Below, in pieces: positions 21,988-47,940 of a stretch of 54,759 nucleotides of DNA; positions within the stretch are counted from its first letter, which is position 1; every line of letters starts with the position of its first letter. The DNA is taken from IMG/VR virus record IMGVR_UViG_3300030098_005273, positions 1-54,759 of that record. One strand, 5' to 3'. Below the pieces are notes generated by a model, which saw nothing but the letters and a program-made list of their open reading frames with translations, had not been told where the DNA came from and made no database searches. A program made the translations under genes and the position numbers. The DNA comes from a virus (lineage: Duplodnaviria; Caudoviricetes).

Positions 21988-22096
21988 TATTGGGAGAGGT
22001 CTTCTACAGAACCTCCTTTATTCTCACTTCCTGTAAGCAGTTATGGAAAGTTAACTGTGAGAAAGACCTCTCGCCAATATAAAGGAGGCTTTAATG
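21988..22096 (+). promoter_or_regulatory. Structured leader with an anti-Shine-Dalgarno segment
   Basis: Stem TATTGG-GAGAGGTCTT/AAGACCTCTC-G-CCAATA; internal CCTCCTTTAT (22012-22021) exactly complementary to ATAAAGGAGG (22079-22088). Confidence 0.6.
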
Positions 22097-25999: not shown

Positions 26000-26208
26000 T
26001 GAAAAGTAGATCGCAAAGAAATATGAGACATACATCAAAATTAAATACAACTAAAGTTATACGAAACGATAGGTTAGGAAAAACTAAAAGAGTATCAAGC
26101 AATCCATCTGAAAATATTTTATCAGATAAGTCTAAGGGAAAAATGTATAAAAGTATTAATATAAAGGGTCAGCAACTGTACGTTAAATTAAGTACAAAAA
26201 AGGATTAA
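25999..26208 (+). CDS. Small basic protein
   Basis: TAATG coupling, AGGAG RBS. Confidence 0.55.
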   Translation: MKSRSQRNMRHTSKLNTTKVIRNDRLGKTKRVSSNPSENILSDKSKGKMYKSINIKGQQLYVKLSTKKD

Positions 26209-26211
26209 TAA

Positions 26212-29160: not shown

Positions 29161-29167
29161 GAGAATT

Positions 29168-32100
29168 ATGGCAGGATTAGATCAATTAATACAAATTATT
29201 AGAGAAAATAGGCGTGCAGAAAGAGAGGATAAAAGGCTCGATTATGCACTAGCTTCTGAAAACTTAAGACTTATGTATCAAAGAGATATGGAAAAGGATA
29301 AGATGGATTTTCAGAAAACTACAATGTTATGGCAGGCAGCTAAGAATGAAAGAGATATAGCTCAGCAAGACTACGAGGCAAAGGTTTCAGATTATGAAGA
29401 TACCTATGGAGCTCACATGTCTTTAGATGAGTTAAATATAACAGAAGGCTATCAGAAGTTTATCGATGGAACTTTTAATGAAGAAATAACCATGGATCAA
29501 CAAGAAATAAAGGATATGACTGACCAAGCTAATGCTTATAAGTCTGTTGCAAGTAAAATTGATACTGTTATGAAAACTAAATTAGCTCCCGTAAATAAGC
29601 TTTTTAGTGGTGATTATGGCTTTCATAAAGGAGATCCTAGCAGATTTGATGCAGCTGATTTAGATATAAATTTTATACTAGACCAAGGTAAAAAAAGTTA
29701 TAGCTTTTTAAATGCCTTAACTGCAGCTAATAACGAATTAGAAGGGGGTTCTTACTCTGATAGAATACTAAGAAATAATAATCCTGCAGCTTTAATGTAT
29801 GGGCCGTTTGCCGAAAGTTATGGAGCTGTTTCCGAAGATGATAATCCATGGTATGATATTATAGATAGCAATGGCGCTAAGATAGGAGAGGCTTTTAGTG
29901 AGGAAGATGCTAAGAAAGCGGCTAAAGATGCTAATGGTAAAGTTCAAGGCCCATATTATACTGCAAAATTTGCTACAATGGAAGATGGTGAAAGAGCTCA
30001 AAAAGATTTCTTATTAAAGCAAATAAATGATGCAAATGGTGATGTGGATGCTTTCCTTCAAGCAAACCCTAAATACGAGCCTTACAGAGATGCTTTTATA
30101 CAGGCAACAGAAACTTCAGATGCTTTTAATGACCCTATTATTCAACAGTATTATGATTCACGATATCAACAAATTGATAAAGTGCTCTATGACTTAGAGG
30201 CAGACAGACTTGCTAAGGAAGCTGAAACTTTAGAGAATATTAGCAAGATTAGAGATTTAAAATTAAAAGCTAAGTATAAAAACTTTGTAGAGACAGAAGC
30301 AGAAATTGATTATGTAAGTAAAGCCTTTGCTTTTACTGTAGATAGTCAAGTAGATCAACTTGATATGCTTTTTGACAGTGTCTATTCTTTAGATATGCAT
30401 CTTGATTTATGGGAGACTATGAGTCAACCAGGATACAAAGGAGGGATGGTATATTCTATGGCAACTGAGAATGGGATGAAATATATAGGTCCCGATGACT
30501 CAGCTATAGAATGGTCTGAATCTAGCCAAGCACAAGGGACAGACTCAGAAGGTGATGGTTTAGTAGTTACAACCACTCATAAGGGAGGAGTTTATACACA
30601 ATACAATATGGACGACCCTATGGAAAAGCAAACCTGGTATGAGCAACATATCGATCAGGCGTATTACAATATAGGGCTTGCTATCAATCCTTTAATAGGA
30701 AAAAAGGGCAAAGAAGGGAGAGCAGATGCTATACAATTAGGTAAAAAATGGGTAACATCTGTATCTGAGTTTAGAAAAACATTTGATATATCTAGAACTA
30801 AGGGAGATTATACCCTTTTAGAGGCTGATAAAATATTTAATGTATATGATGATGCTTATCAATATATAGCAGGAGACAATGGTCTTTTAGAGCAAATAAT
30901 GATGTCTCGTGCTAATAGAGATGCTAGGTCTCAGTATAATTTTGAAACAAATCCAGATTCTAAAAATTATGGAAGAGCTGACTATAAATATGACCCTGAT
31001 AATACTCCAGAAAAATTAAAGCAATTTTTATTAGGAGAGCATAAAACATTGGTAGATGGTCAAACTTATAAGGTCCCTGGTTATTACCATCCAGGTTTTG
31101 CAGTTAATGCCTATACTATGCGTCAAAATAAAGCTAAAAGTATAAAAGCAGTAAGTGAAACTGTGTATGACTCTTATGAGTTTTATCAAAAATTTTTAGG
31201 ACAAGATCCTTTTGATTGGGTTACTAGCAATGAATACACTCAATTTGATGAATTAAGAAACCTATATGATGATTTAAAGCTTAATATGGGCTTAGATATA
31301 CTAGATAGGAATTTAGGAAATATTCAAGACTGGTCAGAACCTGGGGATATAGATGGAGATGGGTTTGTAAGTGATCAAGAAATAGATTACTTTGACTACC
31401 TTCAAGACCAAAAAAAAAAAGATAATTCCGTGATACCATCTAAGAAAGATGATACCAAGGTAGATGCTACGCAAACATCTTCTGTTCAAGGACAATCTGA
31501 TGTAGATAAAACATCTTTTGATATTCCTACGTTTGACAATCAAGGGAATGTTCAAAACGCTTATGCGTATTACAGGGAAATGGATTGGGACCCTACTGGA
31601 GAAGCTTGGTATGATGAATCTGTTGGAAAAGAGTATGGGTGGAGTGATAACGGATGGAATAAAACTGATAAGGTTAAGAAAGGAGATCTATATGCCTCAC
31701 TTGATCCTGGAATTAGTACTAAGAAAGGTGGAGTTTTAAATGAAATTCCTAATCTGGCTCATAACAGATCTTATTTTAATAAATCAGTGGAAGAGGGTTT
31801 TGAAGAAACTGGACTCTCAGGAGCTTATTTCAATAGAGGGCTGCCTTGGCATCAAACAGATGGTGTAGCAGGTGGTGGAGACAGAAACTTGGGACTGCAT
31901 ACAAATAGAGGCGATGTACAAATTGGCGCTGGATATTTGCATAATTTTATAGCCGATGAAGGTTATCATTATTATTTTAGCGGTGATAGCAAGACAACAA
32001 ATAGTAAAGCTTATGACCCTGAGAATCCAAATGCAGATACAGATGGCTATGTGCATTATTTTGATCCTTTTATGGAGACTGGAAATGTACTATATGGAAA

Positions 32101-33301
32101 TCGCTATGGATTTAGAGAAGGAATACCTTTTAATCAGGAGATAGCTGACCTTGGATTGGAAGAAGATGTATACACATTAGGTGAGGAGATTACTAATCCC
32201 AATTCTGTGAAAAAGCTTGATGGCTCTCCTACTTTTGTAAGTCATCCACATCCTTATTATACAACAAAACAGTTTGCTTTGCCTAATTTCCTTCTATCTC
32301 CTAAAGAAGGAGGGCCAGGAGGGGTATTTGGTCCAAGAGATCTTCCAAGGTATACTGATCATAAAGATTTTGATAAGCCTATTGTAAGTTTTGGTTTTTA
32401 TCCATCTGATAATAAATATGCAGACTTAATATATAGTTTAGATGATCAAGAGCTTGAAACAGTTGCTAAGATATATAATTCTATGGCAGGAGGGGATTCT
32501 TACACTTATACGTATGATGGAGAATTAAACACTGTAGATCATTTTAATGATTGGTATAATCATCATGCTCCAATAGTATCTTCTTTATCTGATAGTCAGT
32601 TTGGTGTTGCAGATGATAGAATTTTACATTTACCTCATTTACCAGAATTGGTTTTATTTAGAAAGGTAGATGTTCCTTACGGACTCCACCATTATATAGA
32701 GCAAAATCCTGATATGGCTTTTGTAGAGGAAAGATTTGTAGGAATGGACTCCGCAAAAGGTGATACTCCTGTAAGGCATAGAAGAAGTGGGGCTAGAGGG
32801 TTAGATGAATATGCTGAGGGAAAAATTACTGAAGAAGGTGAAGATTACTTTAGAAATATAGAAGCAGATCTAAGTCATCACGGTATCTTTAAACAACCTA
32901 AGTCAGATTTTATTGACCCTAGGTATAGAAATGTCAACTGGACATCTGAAAGCCGCTCAACCCTTCATGGCAATTTTTATGGGGAAGATACTGAGCAAGC
33001 TAAAAAACATATAGCTAGAATAAAAGAGCTGTACCCTGAATACGATCACGAAGCATTAAAAAATATAAGAGATAGGGTATTTAATTATTATGCACCTGCT
33101 ATGAATATTATTCCTCCTGATAAACTGTTAAAATTGATGGAGTATTACGAAAAGCAAATAGGGCATATAGGGACTTTCGAAATGCCTCCTTTGATTGAAT
33201 TTTTGGGAAGTGCAAATACTTATGATGATTTAAAAAATGAATTAGATTATCAAAGCAGAATAGAGAATGAGTTAAATAATTATATAGATAGATTGGCTTA
33301 A
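29168..33301 (+). CDS. Putative internal virion (ejection) protein with lysozyme-like motif
   Basis: 1377 aa; N-terminal coiled coil; RNNNPAAL...KFATMEDGERA motif; EF-hand-like DIDGDGFVSDQE. Confidence 0.65.
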   Translation: MAGLDQLIQIIRENRRAEREDKRLDYALASENLRLMYQRDMEKDKMDFQKTTMLWQAAKNERDIAQQDYEAKVSDYEDTYGAHMSLDELNITEGYQKFIDGTFNEEITMDQQEIKDMTDQANAYKSVASKIDTVMKTKLAPVNKLFSGDYGFHKGDPSRFDAADLDINFILDQGKKSYSFLNALTAANNELEGGSYSDRILRNNNPAALMYGPFAESYGAVSEDDNPWYDIIDSNGAKIGEAFSEEDAKKAAKDANGKVQGPYYTAKFATMEDGERAQKDFLLKQINDANGDVDAFLQANPKYEPYRDAFIQATETSDAFNDPIIQQYYDSRYQQIDKVLYDLEADRLAKEAETLENISKIRDLKLKAKYKNFVETEAEIDYVSKAFAFTVDSQVDQLDMLFDSVYSLDMHLDLWETMSQPGYKGGMVYSMATENGMKYIGPDDSAIEWSESSQAQGTDSEGDGLVVTTTHKGGVYTQYNMDDPMEKQTWYEQHIDQAYYNIGLAINPLIGKKGKEGRADAIQLGKKWVTSVSEFRKTFDISRTKGDYTLLEADKIFNVYDDAYQYIAGDNGLLEQIMMSRANRDARSQYNFETNPDSKNYGRADYKYDPDNTPEKLKQFLLGEHKTLVDGQTYKVPGYYHPGFAVNAYTMRQNKAKSIKAVSETVYDSYEFYQKFLGQDPFDWVTSNEYTQFDELRNLYDDLKLNMGLDILDRNLGNIQDWSEPGDIDGDGFVSDQEIDYFDYLQDQKKKDNSVIPSKKDDTKVDATQTSSVQGQSDVDKTSFDIPTFDNQGNVQNAYAYYREMDWDPTGEAWYDESVGKEYGWSDNGWNKTDKVKKGDLYASLDPGISTKKGGVLNEIPNLAHNRSYFNKSVEEGFEETGLSGAYFNRGLPWHQTDGVAGGGDRNLGLHTNRGDVQIGAGYLHNFIADEGYHYYFSGDSKTTNSKAYDPENPNADTDGYVHYFDPFMETGNVLYGNRYGFREGIPFNQEIADLGLEEDVYTLGEEITNPNSVKKLDGSPTFVSHPHPYYTTKQFALPNFLLSPKEGGPGGVFGPRDLPRYTDHKDFDKPIVSFGFYPSDNKYADLIYSLDDQELETVAKIYNSMAGGDSYTYTYDGELNTVDHFNDWYNHHAPIVSSLSDSQFGVADDRILHLPHLPELVLFRKVDVPYGLHHYIEQNPDMAFVEERFVGMDSAKGDTPVRHRRSGARGLDEYAEGKITEEGEDYFRNIEADLSHHGIFKQPKSDFIDPRYRNVNWTSESRSTLHGNFYGEDTEQAKKHIARIKELYPEYDHEALKNIRDRVFNYYAPAMNIIPPDKLLKLMEYYEKQIGHIGTFEMPPLIEFLGSANTYDDLKNELDYQSRIENELNNYIDRLA

Positions 33302-33336: not shown

Positions 33337-36300
33337 ATGGCTGAAAGATATAATAGACTTGAAGAATTAGAAAAATTAATGAGTCAATCAGTTGTGCCTG
33401 ATGATTCAGAACCTATAGAACAGGAGCCTGAGACAGATGATGCAGGATTGATTGATATACCAAAGCCTTATGGAGGGTATGATAATGCTCCATATAGTGG
33501 CAATGATGAGGTTTGGGGAGGTCTTATGCAGCTATATACCCCAGGTACCGATATGCGTGCTACTAAAAGAAAAAGGATGGTTGATTTAAGGAATTATGAT
33601 TTTAGCGCAGAGGGATGGGTTGCACCTGAACCTGAACTTATAGATCCAGGTGGTGAAGAAATATTTGATGAACACGGATTTTGGACAGGAGAAGTTACTC
33701 AACCTACATATACAGATGTAAGCGGTATTGTAGCGCCTACCCCAAAACCTTATGCTGGTAAAAATAGACAAGTTCTCGCAAATCCAGAAGGAGAAGAAGG
33801 ATGGTATTTAGGTAAGAATTTAATTGACCTTGTAGGTAATACTGTGTGGGGAATTGCTGAAGGATTTGGAGCATGGGTCCCAGATATGGCTTCTGGCGGT
33901 GAAATGTCCAAGTTTATGGGTTCTGATGATTGGGCTGATGAAAGTATATGGGGTAAAATAGGTTACAGTGTTGGTACTGGTTTAAGTATGCTTTTTGGTA
34001 TAGGATTGGTTGGAAAAGGACTTCAATGGGGTAGTAAAGCTTTTGGGTTTGGAGTAAAAGCTGCAACTAAAAGTGTTGCAGACGATCTTACAGAGTATGT
34101 TGCAAAAACAAGTATAAAAAAGGGTGGAGTAGAAAAGCTTGTTAAGTCAGCTAGAGCTCAGATTCAAGCAGGTAAAAAGGAAGCTTTAAAAGGCGTAACA
34201 TGGGGGGCACGATTAACTCCTATGAATAGAGCTGCAGCTTTAGCTAGAGGTAATCCTTTATCAAATGAAAAGGTTTATAAAAGTGTATATGACAGCATCA
34301 AAAAAGACCTCAATAAAAAATTAGGTTTAAATTTAGATGATGCAGCTGTAGATAAAGTTACTAAAAAAATAATGGAAGAATCTAGTAACTCACTGCATAA
34401 GCATTTTGGGCACAGTATAGGGCATATAATGGCAGAAAAAGGTCTTAGTTCTGGAAAGGCTAAAATATTATCAGATATGGTCTATGAGGCTGTATTATTG
34501 TCTGCTTATGATGGAATAATGGATATGGGTATGGATTTATGGGCTCAATCTTATATCGATGGAGATGATGTAACTGCTAAGTCAAACATACAACAAGGTT
34601 ACGAATTTACAGAATGGTGGAAGCCGTTTTTTCACGGTGCGGTAACTGGTAGTTTTTTAGGTATGGTAAGGCATATTAAAGGTGGTAAAAAAGTCGATTT
34701 AATGGGTCAAAGTGGAAATCGTAGCGGTATGATAAATGATTTAGGTATAATGAGAAAAGCTATAATGCTTAGGCTTAGAAATGTAAATAATATGGGTGAT
34801 AGACAAATGACAGGATTTTTAAACACCTTATTTCATGCCTCTGATGGAGCTATAATTAAAGATTTGCAAAAGATTGCTACAGAACACGGTCTTCAAAATG
34901 TAGGTAAATTAGGCCGAACATTCTTAGAGAAAATATCTCAACAAGGGTATAAATATACTAAAGCCGATAAGCAGATACTTAGAGAGACTATGACAGCTAT
35001 ACAGAAAACTGTTTTAGGGAAAAATGGTCTTTTAGCTAAGACAGCTGCAGAAATAAGAAAAGATGCAATAGGTTCTTTCGGAAGAGCTACATTAGGCTCA
35101 ATTGTTATGGCTGGATGGGGATATTATGATATGGGTGAGAAAGGACTGCTTCCTTGGCAAACTGATGAAGCAACTAAAAAAGCAGGATATCATCCAGATC
35201 AAAAAGTAACATGGGACAAGCTATTTTTTGACCATATAGTTGGCATGTTTTACATGAAACGTGGTAAGAATGCTGAGACTAATAGTAGATTTTTTTATGA
35301 AGTTATGGGTGATAAACCTATACTGGGTAGTGAAGTTGGAAGAATGTCAAAAGCTATGGAAATATTTGGATATAAAGATTCACAGCTTCAAATTTTCAAC
35401 CATATGGCTCACAGTGAACCTGGAACTGCAATTATGAGAGCAAGTGCTTTAAAGGGTATATATGCAGATAAAGAAATTGTAGGTGTTATTGATAAAATGG
35501 GGGCAGACTTAGTTGATGCTCAGCAATATATAGAGATAGTAAAAAGGACAAATGTAGAAGGTGTTGATCCTAGCGAAAGAGTAGATAATTGGCATGTCCA
35601 TGTTAAAGACCATCTATCTAACTTAGAAACAAAGATACGAGATGCTAAGAAAAAAGGTGATACAAAAGAGCAGGCTAAGCTTGAGAAAGAGCAAATGGAA
35701 GTTCATGATGCAATGCTATTTACTGAAAAGATACAAAGGCTTACCCTGTTTGATATTAATAATAAATCTGTAAGACCTATGACCAGAAAGGATGCATTAA
35801 ACTTTATTCAAAAATATAAAGAGATAACTCTTTCTGATGGGGCTAAAATAAATGTTAATAACTTTGACGTATTAGACAGAATGATAGAAGATGGAGCTTT
35901 TCAATTTACAAGAAAAGTTGAAAATGTAGGTCTAGACTTTATATTTGAGTCTTTAGAAATTCTAGACTTAATTGACCCTACGAATATGACAAAGGGTGCA
36001 AAGATTAATAAAAGCACTTTAAATGCATTAGAGGCAATACTTACTTCCAATACAGGAGGAGAGAAAGGCGTTACAGATAAAATATATGAAACAGCTTACG
36101 CTTTAAGAGAGGCTATGCTTCAAGCTAATAAAGTTGGATTAATAGAGCTTTCTGATGCTGAAGGAAGGGTTTGGGATGCAGGTAGAAAATATAATGCTAA
36201 AGAATTAGCCGAGCTTCAAAGAAAATGGAATGATAAGACGGAAGAAATGCACGAACTTGTATTTAACACTATGGGAGTAGAGAGTAGTTGGAGAGCTAAG

Positions 36301-39300
36301 ATTACAGGATTCCAAGAAGGAGATGGAAGATTTCAAGATAATTATATGTTAGGCTCTACACCTATATGGCACTCTATACAGTCTTCTCATATACATAAAA
36401 GAAATGCTGGCACTATGAGAGCTTTAACTGGAAAAGACGCTAAAGGTCAAGAGTTAGATTATTTTAATAAGATTCAAAAAATGTTAGCAGGTAAGGAAGG
36501 TTTTGAAATAGTATCTGATCAAGGTGGAGTTATTGAATTTGCATCTGAAAAGCAATCTGAGTTTTTAGGTAATTTTAATTCCGCTATGAAAATGCTTCAA
36601 GGTGGTCAAGGAAAAGGATTAAAGAAAATTACTATATCAGAACTAGAGGCTCTTATGAATGAAAGCTATACTATAGGTGGTAATGTTTTTCAGAATACTA
36701 CCGAATTTATGGCATTTAGAAGCTTTCTAAATAGAAGTTTTGTAGAGAGTTTAACAGGGAATAAAGATTTATCCGTGCAGCTAAGGGCTGCTTTGACTAC
36801 TTTAATTTCAAATGACAATTTATTAGTTGTAAGATTAGGTAATCAAGTAAAAATCAGAGACTCTAAATCTCTTGAAGCTATTTTAATGAAAAACGCTAAT
36901 ACTATGACTGAGGTAGAGCTTAAAACTATTACAGAGATGCTAGAAACTTATAGAAAAGATTTTGAAATACCTATGAGAAATGCTTTAGGTAAAACAAATC
37001 AAGCTTTAATCAAGTTTGGCGATGGTAAAATGGTAATGGATCAAGAATTATCTAATTTTAATGTTAATGATATTAAGCAAATGATAACTGAAATTAATAT
37101 TGAGGTTAATAAAAAGAGCTTATTTCAAATCCAAGAGTTTTCTTTTAATGCTGAAAAGCTAAGAGTTAATGTTGCAGACTTGCAAAGCAAGGCAAGTGAA
37201 TATGTAGAGAGAGCTGGATTAGGAGAAGTTACTAAAGAAATGAAACAAGCTATAAAAGACGTATTTGATAGCTATACTAATTTTGAAGCACTTCTGACTC
37301 ATTATCATAATACAAATGATGTTATGGGGCTACAGAAACTTACAGAAAAAGCTGAAATGATGCATATGATAAATAGAAAAGGCGAAAGTTGGAACGGAAA
37401 AGATATAAATTCTATTAGGGAGATTAAAACTCTCTTAGATACCTATGTGAAAGAAGTTAGAGTTGAAAGAGATCAAGCATTAAGACTTGATGAAACTTCT
37501 GATTTAGATGCATATGAAGCAGAGCAGATGGCAGGTTTTAATTTCGATAGAAGTGGAAGAATTAAAAAAGGGTCAGTAACAGTTAGCAAGAGTCAGTATG
37601 AAACAAAATGGAATCTTGAGAAAGACTTTATGGACACCTTGGTCGAGACTCCTAAAACTGCTATGAAAGGATTAGGTCTTTCAGGATTAAATTCTCATGT
37701 CGACTTACATTCTCCTGTAGATGGTGTTACTAAGACTAAATATAAAGATTTAATGGAAAAGGGTTTAGTAGAGCTAAATAAGGGTAATTTTACTGAACGA
37801 GATTTTATCGACATAGTTATTAAACCTTTTGTTAATGCTAAAAGTAAGGAAATAGAGCAAAGAATTAAGGCAGATAAGGAAGTTGGGGGAACTGTAGAAG
37901 AGTTTATACAAGATACTCATGCAATAGTTCAGTCTATGCTATCTACTAAAAAAGGCTTGATGGGTACATTTGAAAATGGTTCTTTAAATATTAAGCAGAC
38001 AACCTTTTCTAATTGGGATAGAGGTGTAAATAGATTAGAGAATGTTTTAGGCTTAGAAGGTCAAATAATAACTTTAGCTCAAAGGGTTGGAACTAGCCAA
38101 GGATATTCTAGTAAACTTTCTCCAGAATTAATCGCTCATATGGAAAGCATTATGTCTGGAAAAGGCACTTGGTTTAATCCAGATGTTTCAGAAGTTTTAA
38201 AATCCCAAGATGTTCAATTCTTAGAGTCTATAAAAGATATGGCTTTAGGAACAGGAAATGATGGTAGGGCAAAATTTGTACCGATAAGATTAGATGAAAA
38301 AAGTATGATTTTAATATCTTTTGCAGGTAGAGGACAAGTTTTAGACGCATGGGCTGATCCATCAGGGAAATTGAGAAAAAAATTAGTAGATGTTGTAGCT
38401 GCAGGAAGTGGATGGTGGACTAGTAAAAGTAAGGCAGAGTCTCTTGTAAATAAATATCTTTCTGAGAATTTAAAAGCGGGTGTTGACGGGAAGGGTATTA
38501 TAGATAATACAAATCCTAATATAGGAGATATACAGACACTTGTATTATTAACTAGAATACTTGAGTCTCCTATGGCTTCAAATATGGCTGCGCTTATAAA
38601 AGGTAATAAAGATATGTTTTCTGCTATTCAAGAAGCAAAATATTTAAAATTAGATAGCCCTAAAAATGGTAAAGCTTTAAGTGAAAGAAATTTAAAGTTT
38701 ACTAAGGAGTATGGAGATGCTTTATATGAACAAGGTTCAGATATGCACAAGCTTCATCAGATATTTAAAGAAAGGACATTTAATGAGGATGGTACTTTAA
38801 AGAAACATAGAACTGTAAATATATTAGATGAAAGTGGAGCTAATAGTAAAAATCACTTTAGTACTGAAAAATTAATGGGAGAAGGTCTTCGAGAGCAAAT
38901 AAAAAGAGATAATCCTGACTTAGATAAGAATCAGATTGAAAAAAGAATGGAAGAATATCAAGAACAATACAAGAGGATTCAAGCTTCTGCTATGAACGGG
39001 GAAAAGTATTTAAGCAGAGATGCTATGATACAAATGTTAATGGCAAACGGTGCAACAAAAGATTGGTTTATATGGGGAGATGTTTTAGATACCTCGGGTA
39101 ATGTTGTAGGAAAAGAAGTTGTTGGTTTTAATGTAGCTTTAAAGCCTATAGAGATGCATCATTCAGTTGAAGCAGATGGGACTATGTCTTTTCATATAGG
39201 TAAAACTGCGTACAAATATCATCCATTAATGGACAAGTTGATGAGATATAGAAGTGGAGATAAGGCAGGTAGTTATATTGTAGAATCAATAGGTTTTGAA

Positions 39301-42300
39301 AGCTCCCATAAAGTTCATGCTAAATTTACACCAGGAATGAACAGTATAGAGAAAACTGGATATGATTTACCTGCAGGTGAAAACAAGGGTAAGTTTTTTG
39401 GCTTTATGGAGAAAAATTCAGACCATGTTAGAGATGGTATAAATATACATAGAATGAATCTTGATTTAGAGTCTATTATGATTAAGTCTGTATCATCTAA
39501 TAAAGATGCAGTTGTATCTTCGGGATTTACTACGTTCATGTCTTCTTCAGGGGTAAAATCTTTAAATATGGCTACAGGTTTAAAGGCTACTACTAAATCT
39601 TTAATGGATCAATTTGCTAATTTATCGCAAAGTCCTTGGGCTTATAAGGATATTATATCTCAGATAAAGAATTATAACAAAGAAACTGGAGACAATATAA
39701 CAGGACTATTTGGAATAGATGCTGTTTTAAACGCTAATGGCTTACCTATCTTTGAATACATGATGCCTCAAATACAAAAAGTAGTGGTTTCTGACCACAT
39801 GGGTACAAGAAACGCAGTAAGCTCAAATCTTGCAAAAGGTAGCAATAATGTTATGACAGCTGGTGATGGATATAGTTTTGCAGAAAGAAGAGGAGGCGTT
39901 CAATATAAATTTGGAGGCTCTGGAATGTCTGGTTATGAGGCAGGAAAAAGTGTTAGAGACTTCTTTACTAAGACAGCTGATGGAAAAATAGTTCCTAGTG
40001 GAGTAGAAGGTCTTAATCTTATATTTAAAGTAACTCCCGAATTAGCTAAAAAGTTTAGAGATATAGGCATAGAGGCTGGAGTAGATATAGCTGTTGTTTT
40101 TGATGCAACGACCGCCTCAGGCATTAGAGTGCTAGGTCCACATATAAGAGATGGATTTGGAAACAGAAAGACTAATAAAGCTAGGATTGAAGAATTCGAG
40201 ACTCAAATGGAAAATTCTTATAAAGAAATCATGAAAGAGCTTTATAAAGAATATACTAAGTATAATGATATGACTGTAGGTGAGTTAACTTATTTATTGG
40301 CTGGAGGTAGTGTAAGAGAATATAGAGATGGAAGAATGGAGTTTAAAGATACTAATTTAAGCTCTATAGTAGAAGGTGCACCAAATGGATTTTCTCCTGG
40401 AATACTATCAAATATAGGCTCAGGAGCCAACTTTAGATCTGTCCACTTAGGTAAAACAGACTTAAGAACTCCTAAGATAGGATTGAATGATTTTGTTATG
40501 ACTAGAGTTGAGAAAACTTTAGATAAAAGAAGAGGTCCTGTAAGTGAGATGAATTTAAAGGATGTATTAGATCCGCAAGATGCAGATTTTGATTTAGATA
40601 AATCTTCAAGTATGCATGCATTGCCTGGAAGAACGTTAGCTGATATATACTCTATGTCAGGCTATATGACTCATTCACAAAAAGCATTTGAAACTGCTTT
40701 AAATGAAGTAAGACTTGATAATCATGGCTCTATACAGCAATATACTAATACATTACAGCAGATAGAAGGATTAAGAGCTGGGCTAATGAGGCAGAATTCA
40801 ATATTGTCTACAATGTTAATGCATTTTTCAGCAAAAGAAACTACAGGCAATCCTCTATTTAGACCTGGTCAAGGTAAGCAGGCTCCTAGCGATGTGAGTG
40901 TTGATCCAAGATTTCAATTAACGACTTTTATGGTAGGTAATAAGGAGTATAAAATATCTATTCGTGAAGGTGGTGATTTAGCAAGTTCAATTGGCTATAT
41001 GAAAAATCTTATAAAGGCTACAATTGATATATATAAGAAGCCTCAAGATGTTACTGGCAAAGAATTAGACAAGCTTATTTGGGAGAATTTTGAAAATGGA
41101 TTTCTTCAGATAACCGAAGTGAATTCTAAAGGTAAAGCTACAAAAATAGATTATGCTAAAGCTAATAAAGAAGTTAGAGAAAAGTTTAATCATATAAGAG
41201 ATAAAATATTAAAGCCTGTAGGAGAGCTTCATAATTTACAGCATATGACTGAGCACTTTGCAGATGGAACATCTAGAAGAATGAGTCCTCAAGAATTGGT
41301 TTATAAGTATGAAAAGATATTAACCGATATTCATTTTGCAGGGAAGGATGCTAAGTTAGATGCAAATAATAAAATAATATCGTTTAAAAACAATGATTTT
41401 GCAGCTCTTACTAGTGAATTATTAAGCTTTTTAGGTGGTGGTAAAAATGCAAAAAATATGGTTATAGACTCACACCCAATGCCTGTAGTTCAAGTATTGA
41501 TGTCTTTAAAGAAAGGAATGAGTAGTCCTTTTGGAGATGCCTCTCTTGATTATGGTATAGGCACATTAATGATGACAGAGAATCTTTCTCAAACTAAAAT
41601 GACAGAGTCTATAAGTAAAATGCTAAGTAATCAAAAAGCTTTAGCTAGTATACATATAGCTCAGTCAAGATTAGATGGTATTAAATCTATTATGGAAAAC
41701 TATGAACGTAGTGGCAGAAAGGGTTCAGATCAATATGTTTATTGGGAAGTACAGGCAAAAACTATTGAAAGAGTTATTAATGAATTCAACAGACAGGTAA
41801 GTGACCCTACGTTTACTTTCGGTAACGGATTAAAGGCGGCTAAAAGGCAAGATGGTAGCAAGTATGTAAATGATGTTACTTTTATTTATAGAGGGCAGTA
41901 CGACACTAATGGAAAGTTTAAATCTGCTCAAGTTGTAAGAAGAGCAAATCCTGGAGAACTTATTTATTGGAAAAAGGGTGATGTAGTAGTAACCAATCCT
42001 AAGAGAATAGAGGCTGGAAATGACCATATAAATAAAGTTAGAAGAGCTGAAGCTTCTGCATTTGGAAGAGTTCTATTAGGTCAAGATGGAAACATCCTAG
42101 CTCTTGAAAAGCTTGTTAAAGACTTTAGCAATAAAGTTAGGGAGATTCCAAATGAATTAATAGACCCGAATTCTCCCATGACTAGCGATAAGTTTAATAT
42201 GATAAATGAATTTGAGCTTAGATATGTAGCAGATATAGTTGATGCTGCTATGTCTATAGGAGGAAAGCAATCAGCACAACAAGTTTTGATGATGCTAATG

Positions 42301-42978
42301 ACTCCTAGGCTTAAAGAAAATGTTTTCAATATATCTGGATACAATGTTCATCAAAAATCTGCTGCTTTAAGCACCACCTATCAAAGCAATAAGCGTAATG
42401 AAAGAATGGTATTATCTTATTTAGAAAGAGCTATGAATGGAAAAGCATCTACAACCTTAGAGGCTACTCAAGCTAGAGAAATATACGAATGGATGAATAC
42501 TGAGTTTAAAAAGGCATTTGTAAAGCAATGGGATCCAACAAGGCAGGGAGATATATTTACCTTTCAACAAAATAATAGAAGAGTTGAGGATTTCTCTTTA
42601 TTAAATCCACTAAACGACATTCCCTCATTTATGACAAGTAAGGAGATTACAAAGAAAAGTAGAGAAGTTATGCAGGCTTATTTAACTGGAACTTATTTTA
42701 TGGATCCTGCAGCTTTATACAGATTTACATTAGGTATGAAAGGAGCTGAATATAAAGATGGTACTTGGAATATCCCAGGCGGGAGAAAGATGCATAATGT
42801 GATAGAAGGTATGTGGGAAGGAACTAGCGGAAGACATATAAATGGAGATGGAGGTATATATATACCTAATAGCGTGTTTAGAAAGTCAGACCCTAACTTT
42901 GTTAGAAGACAAAATAAGGATTCTGAAGGTATAGGTGCTGGTATAGAGAAAATAGAAAGTCAATGCTTTGGAAATTAA
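33337..42978 (+). CDS. Giant virion protein with two-barrel (crAss-like) RNA polymerase domain
   Basis: 3213 aa; DADFDLD at aa 2415-2421 (nt 40579-40599), upstream RTP motif, and KTAYK / ESSHKV Lys motifs; located in the ejection-protein block. Confidence 0.75.
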   Translation: MAERYNRLEELEKLMSQSVVPDDSEPIEQEPETDDAGLIDIPKPYGGYDNAPYSGNDEVWGGLMQLYTPGTDMRATKRKRMVDLRNYDFSAEGWVAPEPELIDPGGEEIFDEHGFWTGEVTQPTYTDVSGIVAPTPKPYAGKNRQVLANPEGEEGWYLGKNLIDLVGNTVWGIAEGFGAWVPDMASGGEMSKFMGSDDWADESIWGKIGYSVGTGLSMLFGIGLVGKGLQWGSKAFGFGVKAATKSVADDLTEYVAKTSIKKGGVEKLVKSARAQIQAGKKEALKGVTWGARLTPMNRAAALARGNPLSNEKVYKSVYDSIKKDLNKKLGLNLDDAAVDKVTKKIMEESSNSLHKHFGHSIGHIMAEKGLSSGKAKILSDMVYEAVLLSAYDGIMDMGMDLWAQSYIDGDDVTAKSNIQQGYEFTEWWKPFFHGAVTGSFLGMVRHIKGGKKVDLMGQSGNRSGMINDLGIMRKAIMLRLRNVNNMGDRQMTGFLNTLFHASDGAIIKDLQKIATEHGLQNVGKLGRTFLEKISQQGYKYTKADKQILRETMTAIQKTVLGKNGLLAKTAAEIRKDAIGSFGRATLGSIVMAGWGYYDMGEKGLLPWQTDEATKKAGYHPDQKVTWDKLFFDHIVGMFYMKRGKNAETNSRFFYEVMGDKPILGSEVGRMSKAMEIFGYKDSQLQIFNHMAHSEPGTAIMRASALKGIYADKEIVGVIDKMGADLVDAQQYIEIVKRTNVEGVDPSERVDNWHVHVKDHLSNLETKIRDAKKKGDTKEQAKLEKEQMEVHDAMLFTEKIQRLTLFDINNKSVRPMTRKDALNFIQKYKEITLSDGAKINVNNFDVLDRMIEDGAFQFTRKVENVGLDFIFESLEILDLIDPTNMTKGAKINKSTLNALEAILTSNTGGEKGVTDKIYETAYALREAMLQANKVGLIELSDAEGRVWDAGRKYNAKELAELQRKWNDKTEEMHELVFNTMGVESSWRAKITGFQEGDGRFQDNYMLGSTPIWHSIQSSHIHKRNAGTMRALTGKDAKGQELDYFNKIQKMLAGKEGFEIVSDQGGVIEFASEKQSEFLGNFNSAMKMLQGGQGKGLKKITISELEALMNESYTIGGNVFQNTTEFMAFRSFLNRSFVESLTGNKDLSVQLRAALTTLISNDNLLVVRLGNQVKIRDSKSLEAILMKNANTMTEVELKTITEMLETYRKDFEIPMRNALGKTNQALIKFGDGKMVMDQELSNFNVNDIKQMITEINIEVNKKSLFQIQEFSFNAEKLRVNVADLQSKASEYVERAGLGEVTKEMKQAIKDVFDSYTNFEALLTHYHNTNDVMGLQKLTEKAEMMHMINRKGESWNGKDINSIREIKTLLDTYVKEVRVERDQALRLDETSDLDAYEAEQMAGFNFDRSGRIKKGSVTVSKSQYETKWNLEKDFMDTLVETPKTAMKGLGLSGLNSHVDLHSPVDGVTKTKYKDLMEKGLVELNKGNFTERDFIDIVIKPFVNAKSKEIEQRIKADKEVGGTVEEFIQDTHAIVQSMLSTKKGLMGTFENGSLNIKQTTFSNWDRGVNRLENVLGLEGQIITLAQRVGTSQGYSSKLSPELIAHMESIMSGKGTWFNPDVSEVLKSQDVQFLESIKDMALGTGNDGRAKFVPIRLDEKSMILISFAGRGQVLDAWADPSGKLRKKLVDVVAAGSGWWTSKSKAESLVNKYLSENLKAGVDGKGIIDNTNPNIGDIQTLVLLTRILESPMASNMAALIKGNKDMFSAIQEAKYLKLDSPKNGKALSERNLKFTKEYGDALYEQGSDMHKLHQIFKERTFNEDGTLKKHRTVNILDESGANSKNHFSTEKLMGEGLREQIKRDNPDLDKNQIEKRMEEYQEQYKRIQASAMNGEKYLSRDAMIQMLMANGATKDWFIWGDVLDTSGNVVGKEVVGFNVALKPIEMHHSVEADGTMSFHIGKTAYKYHPLMDKLMRYRSGDKAGSYIVESIGFESSHKVHAKFTPGMNSIEKTGYDLPAGENKGKFFGFMEKNSDHVRDGINIHRMNLDLESIMIKSVSSNKDAVVSSGFTTFMSSSGVKSLNMATGLKATTKSLMDQFANLSQSPWAYKDIISQIKNYNKETGDNITGLFGIDAVLNANGLPIFEYMMPQIQKVVVSDHMGTRNAVSSNLAKGSNNVMTAGDGYSFAERRGGVQYKFGGSGMSGYEAGKSVRDFFTKTADGKIVPSGVEGLNLIFKVTPELAKKFRDIGIEAGVDIAVVFDATTASGIRVLGPHIRDGFGNRKTNKARIEEFETQMENSYKEIMKELYKEYTKYNDMTVGELTYLLAGGSVREYRDGRMEFKDTNLSSIVEGAPNGFSPGILSNIGSGANFRSVHLGKTDLRTPKIGLNDFVMTRVEKTLDKRRGPVSEMNLKDVLDPQDADFDLDKSSSMHALPGRTLADIYSMSGYMTHSQKAFETALNEVRLDNHGSIQQYTNTLQQIEGLRAGLMRQNSILSTMLMHFSAKETTGNPLFRPGQGKQAPSDVSVDPRFQLTTFMVGNKEYKISIREGGDLASSIGYMKNLIKATIDIYKKPQDVTGKELDKLIWENFENGFLQITEVNSKGKATKIDYAKANKEVREKFNHIRDKILKPVGELHNLQHMTEHFADGTSRRMSPQELVYKYEKILTDIHFAGKDAKLDANNKIISFKNNDFAALTSELLSFLGGGKNAKNMVIDSHPMPVVQVLMSLKKGMSSPFGDASLDYGIGTLMMTENLSQTKMTESISKMLSNQKALASIHIAQSRLDGIKSIMENYERSGRKGSDQYVYWEVQAKTIERVINEFNRQVSDPTFTFGNGLKAAKRQDGSKYVNDVTFIYRGQYDTNGKFKSAQVVRRANPGELIYWKKGDVVVTNPKRIEAGNDHINKVRRAEASAFGRVLLGQDGNILALEKLVKDFSNKVREIPNELIDPNSPMTSDKFNMINEFELRYVADIVDAAMSIGGKQSAQQVLMMLMTPRLKENVFNISGYNVHQKSAALSTTYQSNKRNERMVLSYLERAMNGKASTTLEATQAREIYEWMNTEFKKAFVKQWDPTRQGDIFTFQQNNRRVEDFSLLNPLNDIPSFMTSKEITKKSREVMQAYLTGTYFMDPAALYRFTLGMKGAEYKDGTWNIPGGRKMHNVIEGMWEGTSGRHINGDGGIYIPNSVFRKSDPNFVRRQNKDSEGIGAGIEKIESQCFGN

Positions 42979-42990: not shown

Positions 42991-45900
42991 ATGGCAATAT
43001 GTTTAAGTAAGGGCGAAAAGCAGAATAAGAACTGGAAAAAGCTTAGAAATGGTGAAGGAATGACCGCTCTTTTAAATAGTAAAAAGTTAAAAGATTTAGA
43101 CCTTAATAATTGGGAAACCGTTGAATGGCTTTATAAAAAAGCTACAGGAAATTATCTTGATGTACAAACAGTCCCTATTACAGGTGGAGATGTTGCGTCT
43201 TTTAATAGATACGTAACAAAAGACTTTATACCAGGACTTGGAAAAAGAAAGAACTGGGTTCAAGAGCTTTTCTATCTACCTACAGCTTTAATGAGAGGTA
43301 TTAAAGGAGGAGAGGAGTTTACAAATAGGCTTGGAGAATCTATACTATACAATCAAAGACAGATGAAAAATGGTCAAATAAATATTGATAAAATGATGAA
43401 AGGTCTCTATAAAATGTTTACAGATAAAGAATCTAGTATCATTATTAATGCTGGTAGAGATTTTACTAAAAAAGAATATCTTGAATTTCAAAGACTTGAA
43501 AGAGAATTGTTAATAGCCCCTAAAGGAGATAAGCGTGAGTTTCAAAAGAGATTAGTTAAGTTTATTGGCTCAGGAAATGAAAACGATCCTTTAGGTGGTC
43601 AAGTCTTGAGAAGATTTACAGATTTATTACAGGGAAAAGTTCCAGAGACCACAATAGAAAGAGAGATAGTAGGTACTTGGAATATTCTTAGAACTGACAG
43701 CTTTAAGAATCTTTTAAATGGCTCTATTAGTGCTAGAAGGACTATAGAAACGCTTTTAGATGCTTCTCCTAACAAAAAGATTCTCCTTCAAGCTTATGAA
43801 AAAATTCAATCAGAAATAGAAGCTTTAATGATAAGTAAAAGGGAAAGTGATAAGTTTACATTTAACGAATGGACTGAAAGAGAAGGTGCGTGGATAGCTA
43901 CAGATAAAAGAGATCTAAAAGTTTTTGATCCTGTAACGAAAAGAACTGAGCCTTATTTAAGAAAAAGAATAGTTGATGGAGAGGAAACCTTAGATACTTA
44001 TGTAGGTATTAAGAAATATTCTCCTAGGTATGTTTTAGAGCTTACAGACTTGCTTCATAATTTAACAGCGTATGCTAAACATGGTGATAAAGCTATGTTT
44101 CAAGGCAAGAGTTCTCAAGAAGTTTTAGAGATGATAGAAAAAAATCTAAACCCTACAGCTATATCTAACAGGCTTAAGCAGGCAGCTAGAACAGATGACT
44201 ATTTTAGTTTAGATCCTGCTTATTTCTTAAATAAATACTTATTTGATGTGTCTTCTTTTAATATGAGAGCTAGAGTCAATCATGCTTATTCAGAAGTAAC
44301 TATGAAATTATGGGATTCAGTTCGCAAAAATAATTTAAGTCATAGAGGTGATGCTAAAATAGCTGAATATTCAAGACACCTTATTGATGTTATAACTCAA
44401 ATAAAAGATAATGCTCTTGTAAGTAATGGCTCTCCTAAAACCGTATTAGATGAAGCAGTTAGACTTATAAATGGATTTGAGTATATGTCTAAAATAGGAT
44501 TTAGTGTAAAAAGTGGTATTAAGAATAGGACTCAAGGTTTACAAAATTGGGTTCAATTTGGTAGCAGAGGCTATAGAATAGCTAAAGATTTTAAGAATAC
44601 GAGTAGTAGAGAGCAAGATGTAGGTGGTCGTGAGCTAACTAATGACGCTATGATTAAAAGGCAAATGAAAAGATTTGGTATGATGTTTGGAGAAAGAGCA
44701 GAAACTGGAACTATGTCTGCAGCTACTGAAGGTTCTCTAGATGTAATGCTAGTTCCTAAAGGTTTTGATGTTGATTCAAAAGGTAAGCTTATATTGTCTA
44801 AGAAATCAAGCGCTTTAACTAAGGCAGCTGACTTAATGTCTAAAGGTGCAGACTTTTCTTCAAGACATACTCCTCTTGGAAAATGGTTTTCCCAGCAGTA
44901 TGCTGAAAATCAAAATAGAAAAAATACTTTTGAAATATCATTTGCACATGCATTTATAGGAGAGCAGAGAAGGGCTGCTTATCACGAAAAGAAATTAACA
45001 GAAGAGCTTGGCCACGCTCCTACTAAAAAACAGTTATATGATAGAATAGAGAGGATAGCTGGCAATATGGCTATGGAATCAGTTAAGATGATTCATTATG
45101 ATTATGATAATTGGGCTAAAGCTAGGATACTCCAAGGTAAAGCTGGTAAAACTATAGGACAGTTTCAGCATTTTAAATTTGCATTTATGGACTATCAGTA
45201 TAATATGTTAAAAGATATGTCTAGAGATGTTAAGGATTGGAAGTGGAAAGTTCCAGATCCTATAGGTGAAAAAGAAATGATAGTTAATCCTAATATCAGT
45301 AAAGTTTTTAGACAAACAGCTATATATGCTTTTATACCAGCATTAATAGCTATCGTTACAGGCACTGATGTCGGTGGATTTGCATCGGCTTTTGGAGTAA
45401 GTTTTAGTGAAGATGATAGAAAGCAAAAAGGTAAAAAATCTGCAATGGGTACTCCTTTAGATAATCCTATCATAGAAGAAACTGCCAAATTATTAGATTT
45501 TCTAGGAAATTCACCAAATGGAGACCTTACTGAGCAAATAGCTCATTATGATTCTTATTTTGGAAAAGGCCCTATTATATCTCAAATGGGTCCATTTATT
45601 AGTGATATGTTTACTATAGCTGAATTAACCGATTTTATTAACTTGACTGGAGAAGAGTATGAAGAGCATAAGGGCTTAAATCTTGAAGCTGCTAAATCTG
45701 ATCCAAGTAGATATTATTATCAGATAGCTAGAATATTTAATATACAGGGTGCTAGGACTATTTGGCATACTTTACCTGCTTTGATTAACGGAAACCTAGA
45801 GAAAGCTTTTAGAGTGGAAACAGGGCTTTATAAACCTAGATATATAGAAAACTTTAGAGGTGATGTGATTGATGCTACTATAGGAAATGTATATAACAAT

Positions 45901-46056
45901 ACAGATATTTTGCCAAAGATTAAAACAAATAAGAGAAGAGCTACAACAAATCAAGATGCTATAGACTCTTTAAATTTACTAGAAATGGAATCTAAAAAAA
46001 CAAGGCAGACAATTTATAATCCAAGTACAGGAAGGATGGAAGAAATATGGCAGTAA
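42991..46056 (+). CDS. Putative internal virion (ejection) protein
   Basis: 1021 aa helical; HYDY...GQFQHF pattern seen in large podovirus internal proteins; last late gene. Confidence 0.65.
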   Translation: MAICLSKGEKQNKNWKKLRNGEGMTALLNSKKLKDLDLNNWETVEWLYKKATGNYLDVQTVPITGGDVASFNRYVTKDFIPGLGKRKNWVQELFYLPTALMRGIKGGEEFTNRLGESILYNQRQMKNGQINIDKMMKGLYKMFTDKESSIIINAGRDFTKKEYLEFQRLERELLIAPKGDKREFQKRLVKFIGSGNENDPLGGQVLRRFTDLLQGKVPETTIEREIVGTWNILRTDSFKNLLNGSISARRTIETLLDASPNKKILLQAYEKIQSEIEALMISKRESDKFTFNEWTEREGAWIATDKRDLKVFDPVTKRTEPYLRKRIVDGEETLDTYVGIKKYSPRYVLELTDLLHNLTAYAKHGDKAMFQGKSSQEVLEMIEKNLNPTAISNRLKQAARTDDYFSLDPAYFLNKYLFDVSSFNMRARVNHAYSEVTMKLWDSVRKNNLSHRGDAKIAEYSRHLIDVITQIKDNALVSNGSPKTVLDEAVRLINGFEYMSKIGFSVKSGIKNRTQGLQNWVQFGSRGYRIAKDFKNTSSREQDVGGRELTNDAMIKRQMKRFGMMFGERAETGTMSAATEGSLDVMLVPKGFDVDSKGKLILSKKSSALTKAADLMSKGADFSSRHTPLGKWFSQQYAENQNRKNTFEISFAHAFIGEQRRAAYHEKKLTEELGHAPTKKQLYDRIERIAGNMAMESVKMIHYDYDNWAKARILQGKAGKTIGQFQHFKFAFMDYQYNMLKDMSRDVKDWKWKVPDPIGEKEMIVNPNISKVFRQTAIYAFIPALIAIVTGTDVGGFASAFGVSFSEDDRKQKGKKSAMGTPLDNPIIEETAKLLDFLGNSPNGDLTEQIAHYDSYFGKGPIISQMGPFISDMFTIAELTDFINLTGEEYEEHKGLNLEAAKSDPSRYYYQIARIFNIQGARTIWHTLPALINGNLEKAFRVETGLYKPRYIENFRGDVIDATIGNVYNNTDILPKIKTNKRRATTNQDAIDSLNLLEMESKKTRQTIYNPSTGRMEEIWQ

Positions 46057-46058
46057 TA

Positions 46059-46083
46059 TAGAGGGAAGATAGTCTCCCCTCTA
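46059..46083. terminator. Hairpin at the convergence of late and replication operons
   Basis: TAGAGGG-AAGA-TAG-TCT-C-CCCTCTA between convergent stop codons. Confidence 0.6.
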
Positions 46084-46097
46084 CATTCTTCTCTGGA

Positions 46098-46292
46098 TTA
46101 GAATTTGCCTTTATAAGGGCGACCGTTGAATCGATAGATATTCTGGTCGATTTTCTCCTTAAGCAAATACATTGTATCTAAGTAATTTCTCTCACTAAGT
46201 GAGTCTAATGATTGCATAGCAAAATGCGCTATATCAATTACATCAGCATGGATTCTTTTTAATTTGAAGTCTTTTATTTTATCAACTGCCAT
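46098..46292 (-). CDS. Hypothetical protein
   Basis: AAGGAGG RBS, 64 aa. Confidence 0.7.
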   Translation of the reverse strand: MAVDKIKDFKLKRIHADVIDIAHFAMQSLDSLSERNYLDTMYLLKEKIDQNIYRFNGRPYKGKF

Positions 46293-46605
46293 TTTCCTCC
46301 TTTGGTTTCATGTAATGATTTTGAAGAAAGTCATCAAATCTTAACAATATCAAAGTCTCTCCTCTATCTTGCTTGAAAACAACAGAGTCTACATGCTCAC
46401 TAGGTATTAAAAAGTCTGCTAACTTTTTTCTACATTTAGCTTGTATAGTAAAGCTATTATCTAGCAGGACATCTACTTCTTCATGCCAACCTATTGACTG
46501 ACCATTAGAACCCCAAGCTCTTTTAGCTTCTAGTCCTAGATCTTTTGCTTTATTCACTATCAATCTTTCAAAGGTGTTACCTTTAGTTTTGCTCTTGCTT
46601 GGCAT
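46282..46605 (-). CDS. Hjc-like PD-(D/E)XK Holliday junction resolvase
   Basis: SKTKGNTFER, EVDVL, IQAK motifs; GGGAGG before ATG 46605. Confidence 0.8.
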   Translation of the reverse strand: MPSKSKTKGNTFERLIVNKAKDLGLEAKRAWGSNGQSIGWHEEVDVLLDNSFTIQAKCRKKLADFLIPSEHVDSVVFKQDRGETLILLRFDDFLQNHYMKPKEENGS

Positions 46606-47933: not shown

Positions 47934-47940
47934 AATTTAC

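Follow-up and report, generated by a model that had tools for sequence, protein, structure and literature searches.

We analyzed a 54,759-base stretch of DNA of an uncultured marine phage; it is the whole of the linear IMG/VR record IMGVR_UViG_3300030098_005273 (completeness estimate 95%) and is called the window in the following. Its plus strand carries a giant open reading frame (ORF) of 3213 amino acids (aa), followed 13 nt downstream by a partner ORF of 1021 aa. The giant gene very probably encodes a single-chain RNA polymerase (RNAP) of the kind that is carried in the particles of crAss-like phages, such as gp66 of phage phi14:2. The kind of enzyme is known; this family, however, is unrecognizable by sequence and occurs in a different, smaller type of phage. 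The features of the locus and of the rest of the window are collected in Table 1.

Table 1. Features of the giant gene, its partner and the remaining window; positions are those of the record.
Feature	Position	Strand	Basis or remark
Giant ORF, 3213 aa; candidate polymerase with long N- and C-terminal extensions	33337..42978	+	ATG start, no internal stops
Gly-rich hydrophobic segment, aa 207-229 (KIGYSVGTGLSMLFGIGLVGKGL)	33955..34023	+	Kyte-Doolittle peak, conserved
Modeled polymerase core, aa 1850-2750	38884..41586	+	AlphaFold2
First double-psi beta-barrel (beta-like, DPBB-B), about aa 1911-2060, with K1936-P1937, K1956, K1992, K2050	39067..39516	+	model; approximate limits
Helical connector, about aa 2061-2159	39517..39813	+	helices at model residues 221-308; approximate limits
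Second double-psi beta-barrel (beta-prime-like, DPBB-A) with helical insertion, about aa 2160-2446	39814..40674	+	fold alignments
R2377-T-P2379, counterpart of the RxP of the beta-prime barrel	40465..40473	+	38 residues before D2415
DADFDLD, aa 2415-2421, then invariant K2422; predicted metal-binding motif	40579..40599	+	sequence, conservation
37-residue helix, aa 2464-2500; candidate bridge helix	40726..40836	+	model residues 615-651
Codon of C3210, sole Cys of the 3213-aa protein, 4 residues from the C-terminus	42964..42966	+	
Partner ORF, 1021 aa; positional counterpart of phi14:2 gp65	42991..46056	+	
Codon of C4, sole Cys of the 1021-aa partner	43000-43002	+	
Small terminase	plus arm	+	family scans
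Large terminase (TerL)	plus arm	+	PHROG 38, 1.8e-78
Endolysin	plus arm	+	family scans
P22-like portal	plus arm	+	5.7e-55
SU10-like major capsid protein	plus arm	+	1e-20
Calcineurin-like metallophosphoesterase, within the structural module	20303-21079	+	PHROG 221, 3e-25
Five very large ORFs (1301, 982, 1377, 3213, 1021 aa)	plus arm	+	no family match
Three large late ORFs (1301, 982, 1377 aa) upstream of the giant ORF, completing the giant-gene block	22094..33301	+	no family match
Primase-helicase, Erf, SSB and RusA-like proteins, small ORFs	minus arm	-	Pfam, PHROGs

Predicted catalytic motif and conservation in the family

An earlier reading of the letters, made by a model without database searches (the sequence-only reading), had placed a DADFDLD motif at aa 2415-2421 and an RTP about 38 aa upstream of it, and both were located there in the translated ORF. 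This is the only D-x-D-x-D of the protein. For a protein of such size and composition, 0.76 bare DxDxD motifs are expected by chance; when the protein was shuffled 20,000 times, ADFDxD arose in 35 cases and an RxP followed by DxDxD 30-42 residues further on in 179. The bare motif is not rare by chance; conservation carries more weight as an argument.

Homologues were collected in two ways. By a word-index search, ten relatives of 2580-3203 aa with 28-39% identity were found, plus a fragment of the query itself; these ten, as listed with annotation, have neither Pfam domains nor functional names. When 1.84 billion representatives were searched exhaustively without a profile, 73 proteins had E ≤ 1e-3, including 21 with E ≤ 1e-30; many of the 73 are about 3000 aa long and others are fragments, the complete ones retrieved having about 2950-3200 aa. 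The resulting family alignment (A2) has 41 rows, four of which fall short of the catalytic site. In all 37 rows covering the site, D2415, D2417, D2419, D2421 and K2422 are kept, down to 18-21% overall identity, and Gly never occurs at position 2420, which is always occupied by L, I, F, M, Y or W. Both R2377 and P2379 are present in 36/36 covering rows. The lysine motifs that the sequence-only reading had noted further upstream also proved real: all 34 covering rows have K1936-P1937, K1956 (GKTA) and K1992 (F-x-S-x-x-K) are likewise kept in the covering rows, and in family alignment A1 these three lysines and K2050 are invariant, all of them lying within the first modeled barrel. Along the whole protein, conservation is maximal at aa 2351-2450; aa 1901-2000 and 2101-2200 form lesser peaks.

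Outside the polymerase core, a conservation peak at aa 151-250 encloses the Gly-rich segment aa 207-229. Three 19-residue windows of the protein exceed a Kyte-Doolittle value of 1.2; this segment is the highest of them (1.45) and the only one outside the core, and it is possibly a membrane-inserting or glycine-zipper helix.

Beyond the family itself, relatives were not detected: blastn and tblastn searches with the polymerase core gave no match in 50,697 GenBank phage records, and a scan with an alignment of the motif region, in which 185,579 prokaryote species were represented by one genome each, gave 30 stretches matching the pattern, none of which was confirmed. The absence of a polymerase relative from these prokaryote genomes fits a lytic lineage, and it leaves no prophage or binned contig pointing to a host. 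A sequence profile search of the PDB with the family alignment returned chance matches only, e.g. the string QDADFDLDK in Wza, which were rejected.

Predicted structure of the polymerase core

An AlphaFold2 model of aa 1850-2750 (901 residues) was built on 41 sequences and reached a predicted local distance difference test score (pLDDT) of 81.5 and a predicted template modeling score (pTM) of 0.83. Two facing double-psi beta-barrels in the polymerase core are well supported by this model, and they lie around the DADFDLD motif. The strands of the first barrel are at model residues 62-157 and 198-211; the second barrel carries the RxP and the DFDLD loop. Which part of the model is matched depends on the kind of polymerase: the single-chain RNAPs (QDE-1, RDR2, P74 gp62, gp66) align from model residue 1-35 or so onward and cover residues 25-890 or so, and the largest-subunit chains of Pol I, II and III and of archaeal, bacterial, vaccinia and ASFV RNAPs from about residue 311. 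Alignments with Rpb1 pair model residues 311-731 with Rpb1 354-1124 and thereby span the region of the 37-residue helix.

The model was compared with known and predicted structures in four fold searches, which agree. With Foldseek against the PDB, the top match was 6vr4_A, the virion RNAP of phi14:2 (E 1.2e-3, probability 0.94), and the further rows listed were Pol II largest-subunit entries and QDE-1. In BFVD, 18 matches had E ≤ 1e-3; the best were proteins of uncultured viruses (1.3e-24), and pieces of crAss-like RNAPs followed (cr118_1 7.6e-6, cr50_1 2.3e-5, cr4_1 4.8e-5), with phi14:2 gp66 itself at 7.8e-3. A wide VIA search of 48,161 representative chains, which is independent of Foldseek, had two-barrel RNAPs at all of ranks 1-15, led by QDE-1 (Z 10.4, 410 residues); after rank 15, isolated double-psi barrels such as the Cdc48 N-domain and designed DPBB proteins were matched to model residues 318-579. 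In the same search, gp66 (6vr4_B) had a Z of 8.9 at a root-mean-square deviation of 4.9 and gave the longest alignment, with 571 residues running collinearly (model residues 1-886 with chain residues 929-1816). A second look with VIA gave Z ≥ 8 for 294 of 997 chains, the best 50 of which were all two-barrel RNAPs (Z 9.7-10.8). The two-barrel RNAP proposed in the sequence-only reading is thus borne out at the level of the fold: the core model matches two-barrel RNAPs only, with gp66 as top Foldseek match and longest collinear match. Of the two outcomes that the reading had named as refuting it, a lack of barrels around the motif and Asp residues that vary among homologues, neither occurred.

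Comparison with gp66 and other RNA polymerases

The likeness to gp66 and the RNAPs of Crassvirales is found at several levels. Both are single chains in which a beta-like barrel is followed by a connector and a beta-prime-like barrel, an order described for gp66 and QDE-1 in the available text of the gp66 paper. For the comparison of motifs, an alignment (A3) of eight RNAP cores from crAss-like and Flavobacterium phages was used; nine had been fetched, and cr4_1 was dropped for in-frame stops. In this alignment, R423-x-P425 is invariant and precedes the first D of DFD by 39 residues, the distance being 40 in the 3213-aa protein. In both, a Lys follows the third Asp (DFDIDK in the crAss-like alignment) and the fourth residue of DFDxD is a hydrophobic residue other than Gly. 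The gp66 paper, in its available text, reports that crAss-like RNAPs have Ile or Val there and singles out the non-Gly residue as peculiar to them. Also, the genes of both giant proteins end a block of giant late genes, and a partner of 1000-1400 aa is encoded next. Unlike gp66, the 3213-aa protein has no N-terminal Cys, and the part before its core is longer by about 900 residues.

As a side observation, the RNAP stretch of the uncultured phage cr4_1 (37538-39955), aligned to gp66 by tblastn, contains three stop codons in translation table 11, which is in line with the stop-codon reassignment stated for some crAss-like phages in the accessible part of the literature.

Other single-chain two-barrel enzymes resemble the protein as well. 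QDE-1 and RDR2 had the highest Z values, RDR2 with 9.7-10.6 over 372-409 residues and both barrels; however, they are cellular, non-virion enzymes of about 1000-1400 aa, their aligned length is below that of gp66, and no sequence similarity to them was detected. Among phage enzymes, the non-virion RNAP gp62 of Thermus phage P74 aligned with Z 8.5-10.6 over 353-375 residues, and gp96 of P23-45, a virion RNAP fused to the tape measure, with Z 8.1 over 309 residues. According to the available text on P23-45, gp96 leaves the virion as part of a giant protein. In contrast to the 3213-aa protein, gp96 belongs to a siphovirus tape-measure fusion without clamp, in another genome context and with shorter alignments, and P23-45 gp64 and P74 gp62 are non-virion phage RNAPs, again in a different genome context.

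Giant virion RNAPs are also known from N4-type phages (Schitoviridae), where an enzyme of about 3400-3500 aa is carried in the podovirus head, injected and used to transcribe the early genes. The N4 enzyme has the right-hand fold of T7-like single-subunit polymerases and no two barrels. No T7-like right-hand polymerase fold or family appeared in the Pfam, PHROGs, Foldseek and VIA results for the 3213-aa protein, the core of which is accounted for by the two-barrel fold and the roughly 2300 other residues of which were modeled in part. The virion RNAP of the N4-type phage DEV is given as 3398 aa in the part of the source that was available.

Gene order and the partner protein

In the window, TerL, portal, capsid and metallophosphoesterase genes are followed by the giant genes, the RNAP gene and the gene of about 1000 aa, on which the replication genes converge from the other side. 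Read in the direction of transcription, phi14:2 has TerL, portal, one further gene and capsid; the tail genes, the endolysin, the metallophosphatase, IHF and the tail tubular protein come next. The order continues with g071 (1340 aa), three genes, g067 (1797 aa), the RNAP gene g066 (2180 aa) and g065 (1421 aa), the latter annotated as "RNA polymerase associated protein", after which the replication genes converge from the opposite strand. The skeleton of the order is thus the same, including the phosphoesterase in the structural module (g075 in phi14:2) and the convergent replication arm. For the phi14:2 proteins gp65, gp66 and gp67, the annotation records detection in virions by tandem mass spectrometry (MS/MS), and the gp66 preprint, in the part available, agrees that gp65-gp67 are in the particles. 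The arrangement is also kept among related viral contigs (n = 9; 15-59 kb; G+C 31-41%): in 9/9, a giant ORF is followed by an ORF of 963-1050 aa and then by genes on the opposite strand.

For the 1021-aa partner, the ESM Atlas returned viral hypothetical clusters alone. In one of these (score 0.97), 28% of the members carry PF18858 (LPD39), a "large polyvalent protein" domain, and we regard this as a lead only. Fused forms of the partner were not found in a search among proteins of 1788-5000 aa, which is weak evidence. For RNAP aa 2850-3213 and partner aa 1-350, a complex prediction stayed at a score of 0.17 (mark 0.32) and is uninformative either way.

Terminal cysteines

The distribution of cysteines is a line of evidence independent of the fold. 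Besides the sole Cys of the giant protein and that of its partner, the ORFs of 982 and 1377 aa have no Cys at all, so that these four large proteins (6593 aa) together hold two Cys, compared with about 39 expected at the rate of the other plus-strand proteins; in the remaining 15 plus-strand proteins, 36 Cys are spread over 6120 aa. Of the 25 full-length RNAP homologues examined, all 25 have a single Cys, and it lies among the last seven residues. At the related loci, the one Cys of the RNAP ORF is one of the last two residues (9/9), the partner has a single Cys at residue 3-8 (9/9) and the upstream ORF has none (5/5).

Outside this lineage, the pattern was checked in phi14:2 as the single representative of the crAss-like phages. 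There, the only Cys of gp67 is its last residue and that of gp65 stands at residue 3; the 2180-aa gp66 carries two, at residues 3 and 2179. Since the pattern is common to gp65-gp67, which were confirmed in virions by mass spectrometry, it ties the pair of RNAP and partner to known virion proteins. Together with the position of the gene, it lends indirect support to the packaging in virions that the sequence-only reading had proposed. By analogy, the lone terminal Cys suggests that cargo proteins may be coupled head to tail by disulfides. The words "cysteine" and "disulfide" are absent from the gp66 preprint, and in the available part of the crAss001 atlas the disulfides mentioned concern the tail and the portal vertex. 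No description of the RNAP family or of the Cys pattern was found in the literature searched, the coverage of which was incomplete and excluded supplements.

Layout of the genome

The plus-strand arm is one long block (4989-46056); the minus-strand arm covers 46098-54683 and resumes at 75-4539. Family scans of the 34 + 22 other ORFs recognized neither a second RNA polymerase nor a DNA polymerase in the window. Judged by their position, the ORFs of 1301, 982 and 1377 aa may be cargo or tail proteins.

Some further elements were observed. In the early minus-strand arm, within a gap poor in ORFs, a full-length GOLLD RNA (RF02032; model 1-416) was matched with Rfam at 2604-3013 (-) with 173.4 bits at a gathering score of 150, and adjoining it an 82-nt match to the transfer-messenger RNA (tmRNA) family at 2509-2590 (-) with 62.3 bits at a gathering score of 47 (model span 1-374). 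This second match corresponds to the tRNA-like ends without the middle. ARAGORN reported no tRNA or tmRNA in the window, including the site of the 82-nt match. On the plus strand, an 847-aa ORF after the capsid genes (14823-17366) has a weak coiled-coil-type Pfam match, and within it a stretch of 74 nt is directly repeated (16216 and 16780; 70% identity). A 93-aa ORF (17875-18156, +) weakly matches the SU10 adaptor family (E 0.0012, which does not pass the cut-off); taken with the SU10-like capsid protein, the match is a hint that the head-tail connector belongs to the same podovirus type.

Proposed function of the 3213-aa protein

Taken together, we propose that the 3213-aa protein is a crAss-type single-chain RNAP that is made late, packaged, injected, coupled to its partner and used to transcribe the early genes, and we assign this reading a probability of about 0.7. 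The protein would be a single-polypeptide, two-barrel, Mg-dependent, DNA-templated RNA polymerase with its core at about aa 1900-2700, in which D2417, D2419 and D2421 of the DFDLD loop would hold the catalytic metal and the conserved lysines of the first barrel would face the same active site. Its gene would be expressed late, together with the head and tail genes, and the protein packed into the capsid as cargo, its lone C-terminal Cys probably joined to the lone N-terminal Cys of the 1021-aa partner by a disulfide. Upon infection, the RNAP would exit through the tail with the DNA, possibly aided in delivery by the conserved Gly-rich segment, and would transcribe the early (replication) genes on the opposite strand before phage proteins exist in the new cell. 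Computation supports the fold and the active site; packaging, injection, template and disulfide are inferred here by analogy with phi14:2 and crAss001.

Several results weigh against this proposal. At the sequence level, neither Pfam (E ≤ 1) nor PHROGs (E ≤ 0.01) assigned the whole protein to a family, the PDB profile search missed 6VR4 and every other RNAP, BLASTP against gp66 reached a best E of 0.16, and hhalign of the family profile against gp66 alone gave a probability of 0.7%. Against the eight-sequence crAss-like alignment, hhalign reached 31.8% (E 4.9e-4, 152 columns) in the region of the first barrel, and with trimmed alignments it gave three collinear pieces with E 0.011, 0.09 and 0.14. 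The second of these pairs ADFDLDK with SDFDIDK of gp66, and the pieces are in register with the structural alignment; taken alone, they speak clearly neither for nor against homology. At the structure level, no Foldseek match of the core model in the PDB had E ≤ 1e-3, and a Z of about 10 is moderate for a 901-residue model. A second model (aa 900-1850; pLDDT 73.3, pTM 0.44) had no Foldseek match with E ≤ 1e-3 and no match to gp66, and the wide VIA search gave it generic helical-bundle matches alone, to model residues 361-485. Concerning the genome, IHF, tail-tubular, tail-stabilization and other Crassvirales hallmark genes were not recognized in the window with Pfam and PHROGs, the partner differs from gp65 of phi14:2 in lacking the HExxH (zincin) motif, and a repeat search of the early arm for a shared promoter-like repeat gave nothing convincing. 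Finally, packaging and early transcription rest on analogy.

Relationship to crAss-like phages and host

It is improbable, but has to be considered, that the phage is itself a very divergent, reduced crAss-like phage (Crassvirales in the wide sense) and its RNAP an ordinary orthologue of gp66. The common gene order with the metallophosphoesterase in the structural module and the convergent replication arm, the DFD-hydrophobic-D-K motif and the terminal-Cys pattern are all consistent with such an origin, and crAss-like RNAPs are described, in the available text, as extremely divergent even among themselves. Other observations argue against it. TerL resembles phi14:2 TerL around the Walker A site alone (BLASTP, E 0.008), and its best tblastn matches are phages of many other hosts with at most 26% identity. 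BLASTP against phi14:2 was not significant for capsid (E 0.30), portal (0.37) and phosphoesterase (0.32), nor for the partner against gp65 (E 0.98); in the phage records, the capsid protein had no match and the portal weak ones. While tblastn with the gp66 core retrieved 141 records, the organisms and hosts named in their summary and among the best 40 of 141 all being crAss-like or Bacteroidota phages, the core of the 3213-aa protein retrieved none from the same collection. The genome of 55 kb is about half the size of the 90-100 kb of Crassvirales, its head genes are not crAss-like by BLAST and its genes are led by Shine-Dalgarno sites. The syntenic block of Crassvirales comprises capsid, TerL, portal, IHF, tail-stabilization and tail-tubular genes according to the part of a review available, and no IHF was found here. 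The distinct lineage proposed in the sequence-only reading is supported, in that RNAP, TerL, portal and capsid lack BLAST-level similarity to phi14:2 or crAss-like records and the genome has 55 kb.

The same reading had claimed that most genes have Shine-Dalgarno sites, that sigma-70-type promoters occur and that the host is not a member of the Bacteroidota. Bacteroidota largely lack Shine-Dalgarno initiation. In the window, GGAG, GAGG or AGGA was found at -21 to -5 in 41 of 54 candidate starts (background 10.7% of random 17-mers of the window), compared with 4 of 48 annotated genes of phi14:2 by the same script (background 7.2%), which confirms the first claim. This usage fits a host with Shine-Dalgarno initiation and names no host. 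The contrast with phi14:2 is also the sole support for a host outside the Bacteroidota, a phylum-level assignment that stays inferential. The promoter claim is not supported above chance: sigma-70-like sites are not enriched and are fewer than in shuffles, both at 45900-54759 (25 vs 41.7 +/- 6.3) and at 1-5100 (16 vs 23.0 +/- 4.7). As far as can be judged from its sequence, the carrier of the RNAP is a much smaller phage, unrelated-looking to crAss-like phages, which does not look like a virus of Bacteroidota.

Alternative functions

The protein could also be a real two-barrel polymerase that is not packaged and acts in the producing cell, for instance late or in connection with replication, as a polymerase or primase, which we judge unlikely. 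Such a role would suit a genome in which a primase-helicase and Erf, SSB and RusA-like genes were recognized but no DNA polymerase gene; non-virion two-barrel phage RNAPs exist, as the structural match to P74 gp62 illustrates, and the argument for packaging is indirect. Against it, the gene lies toward the close of the late structural operon and has giant genes as neighbors, like those of gp65-gp67 in phi14:2, and the near-total lack of Cys together with the conserved terminal Cys is hard to explain for a cytoplasmic enzyme. Moreover, about 2300 residues lie outside the core, as in the crAss-like cargo fusions (2180 to about 4490 aa). That the protein is a catalytically dead polymerase shell, i.e. 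a structural or ejection protein forming a channel or plug, is very unlikely: its Gly-rich hydrophobic segment resembles membrane-active parts of ejection proteins and most of the protein has no recognizable fold match, but the metal-binding loop and its barrel are the most conserved stretch, and the invariant four Asp, Lys, RxP and first-barrel lysines are the signature of a working active site.

Implications

We return to the proposal of a packaged and injected crAss-type RNAP. The family shares fold, motif variant, gene position and Cys pattern with the crAss-like enzyme and yet is invisible to sequence methods. One wider idea, which is tentative and may well be wrong, is that injected two-barrel RNAPs are no specialty of Crassvirales and Bacteroidota but an old and widespread device of podoviruses, here in a marine lineage with genomes of 50-59 kb and genes led by Shine-Dalgarno sites, and that their cargo proteins are coupled head to tail by disulfides and leave as one covalent train. 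In such a train, the C-terminus of the RNAP would be linked to the N-terminus of the partner here, and gp67-gp66-gp65 would be linked in phi14:2; the Cys-free, unfoldable proteins would exit the capsid in gene order. The Cys pattern common to this family and phi14:2 thereby offers a simple and testable idea on how giant cargo proteins are ordered for ejection. As a second, deeply diverged family, these proteins may also aid in finding the essential parts among the about 1,600 "unknown" residues of gp66. If the 3213-aa protein is indeed packaged, host-independent early transcription by an injected two-barrel RNAP would be far more common in marine viromes than annotation shows.

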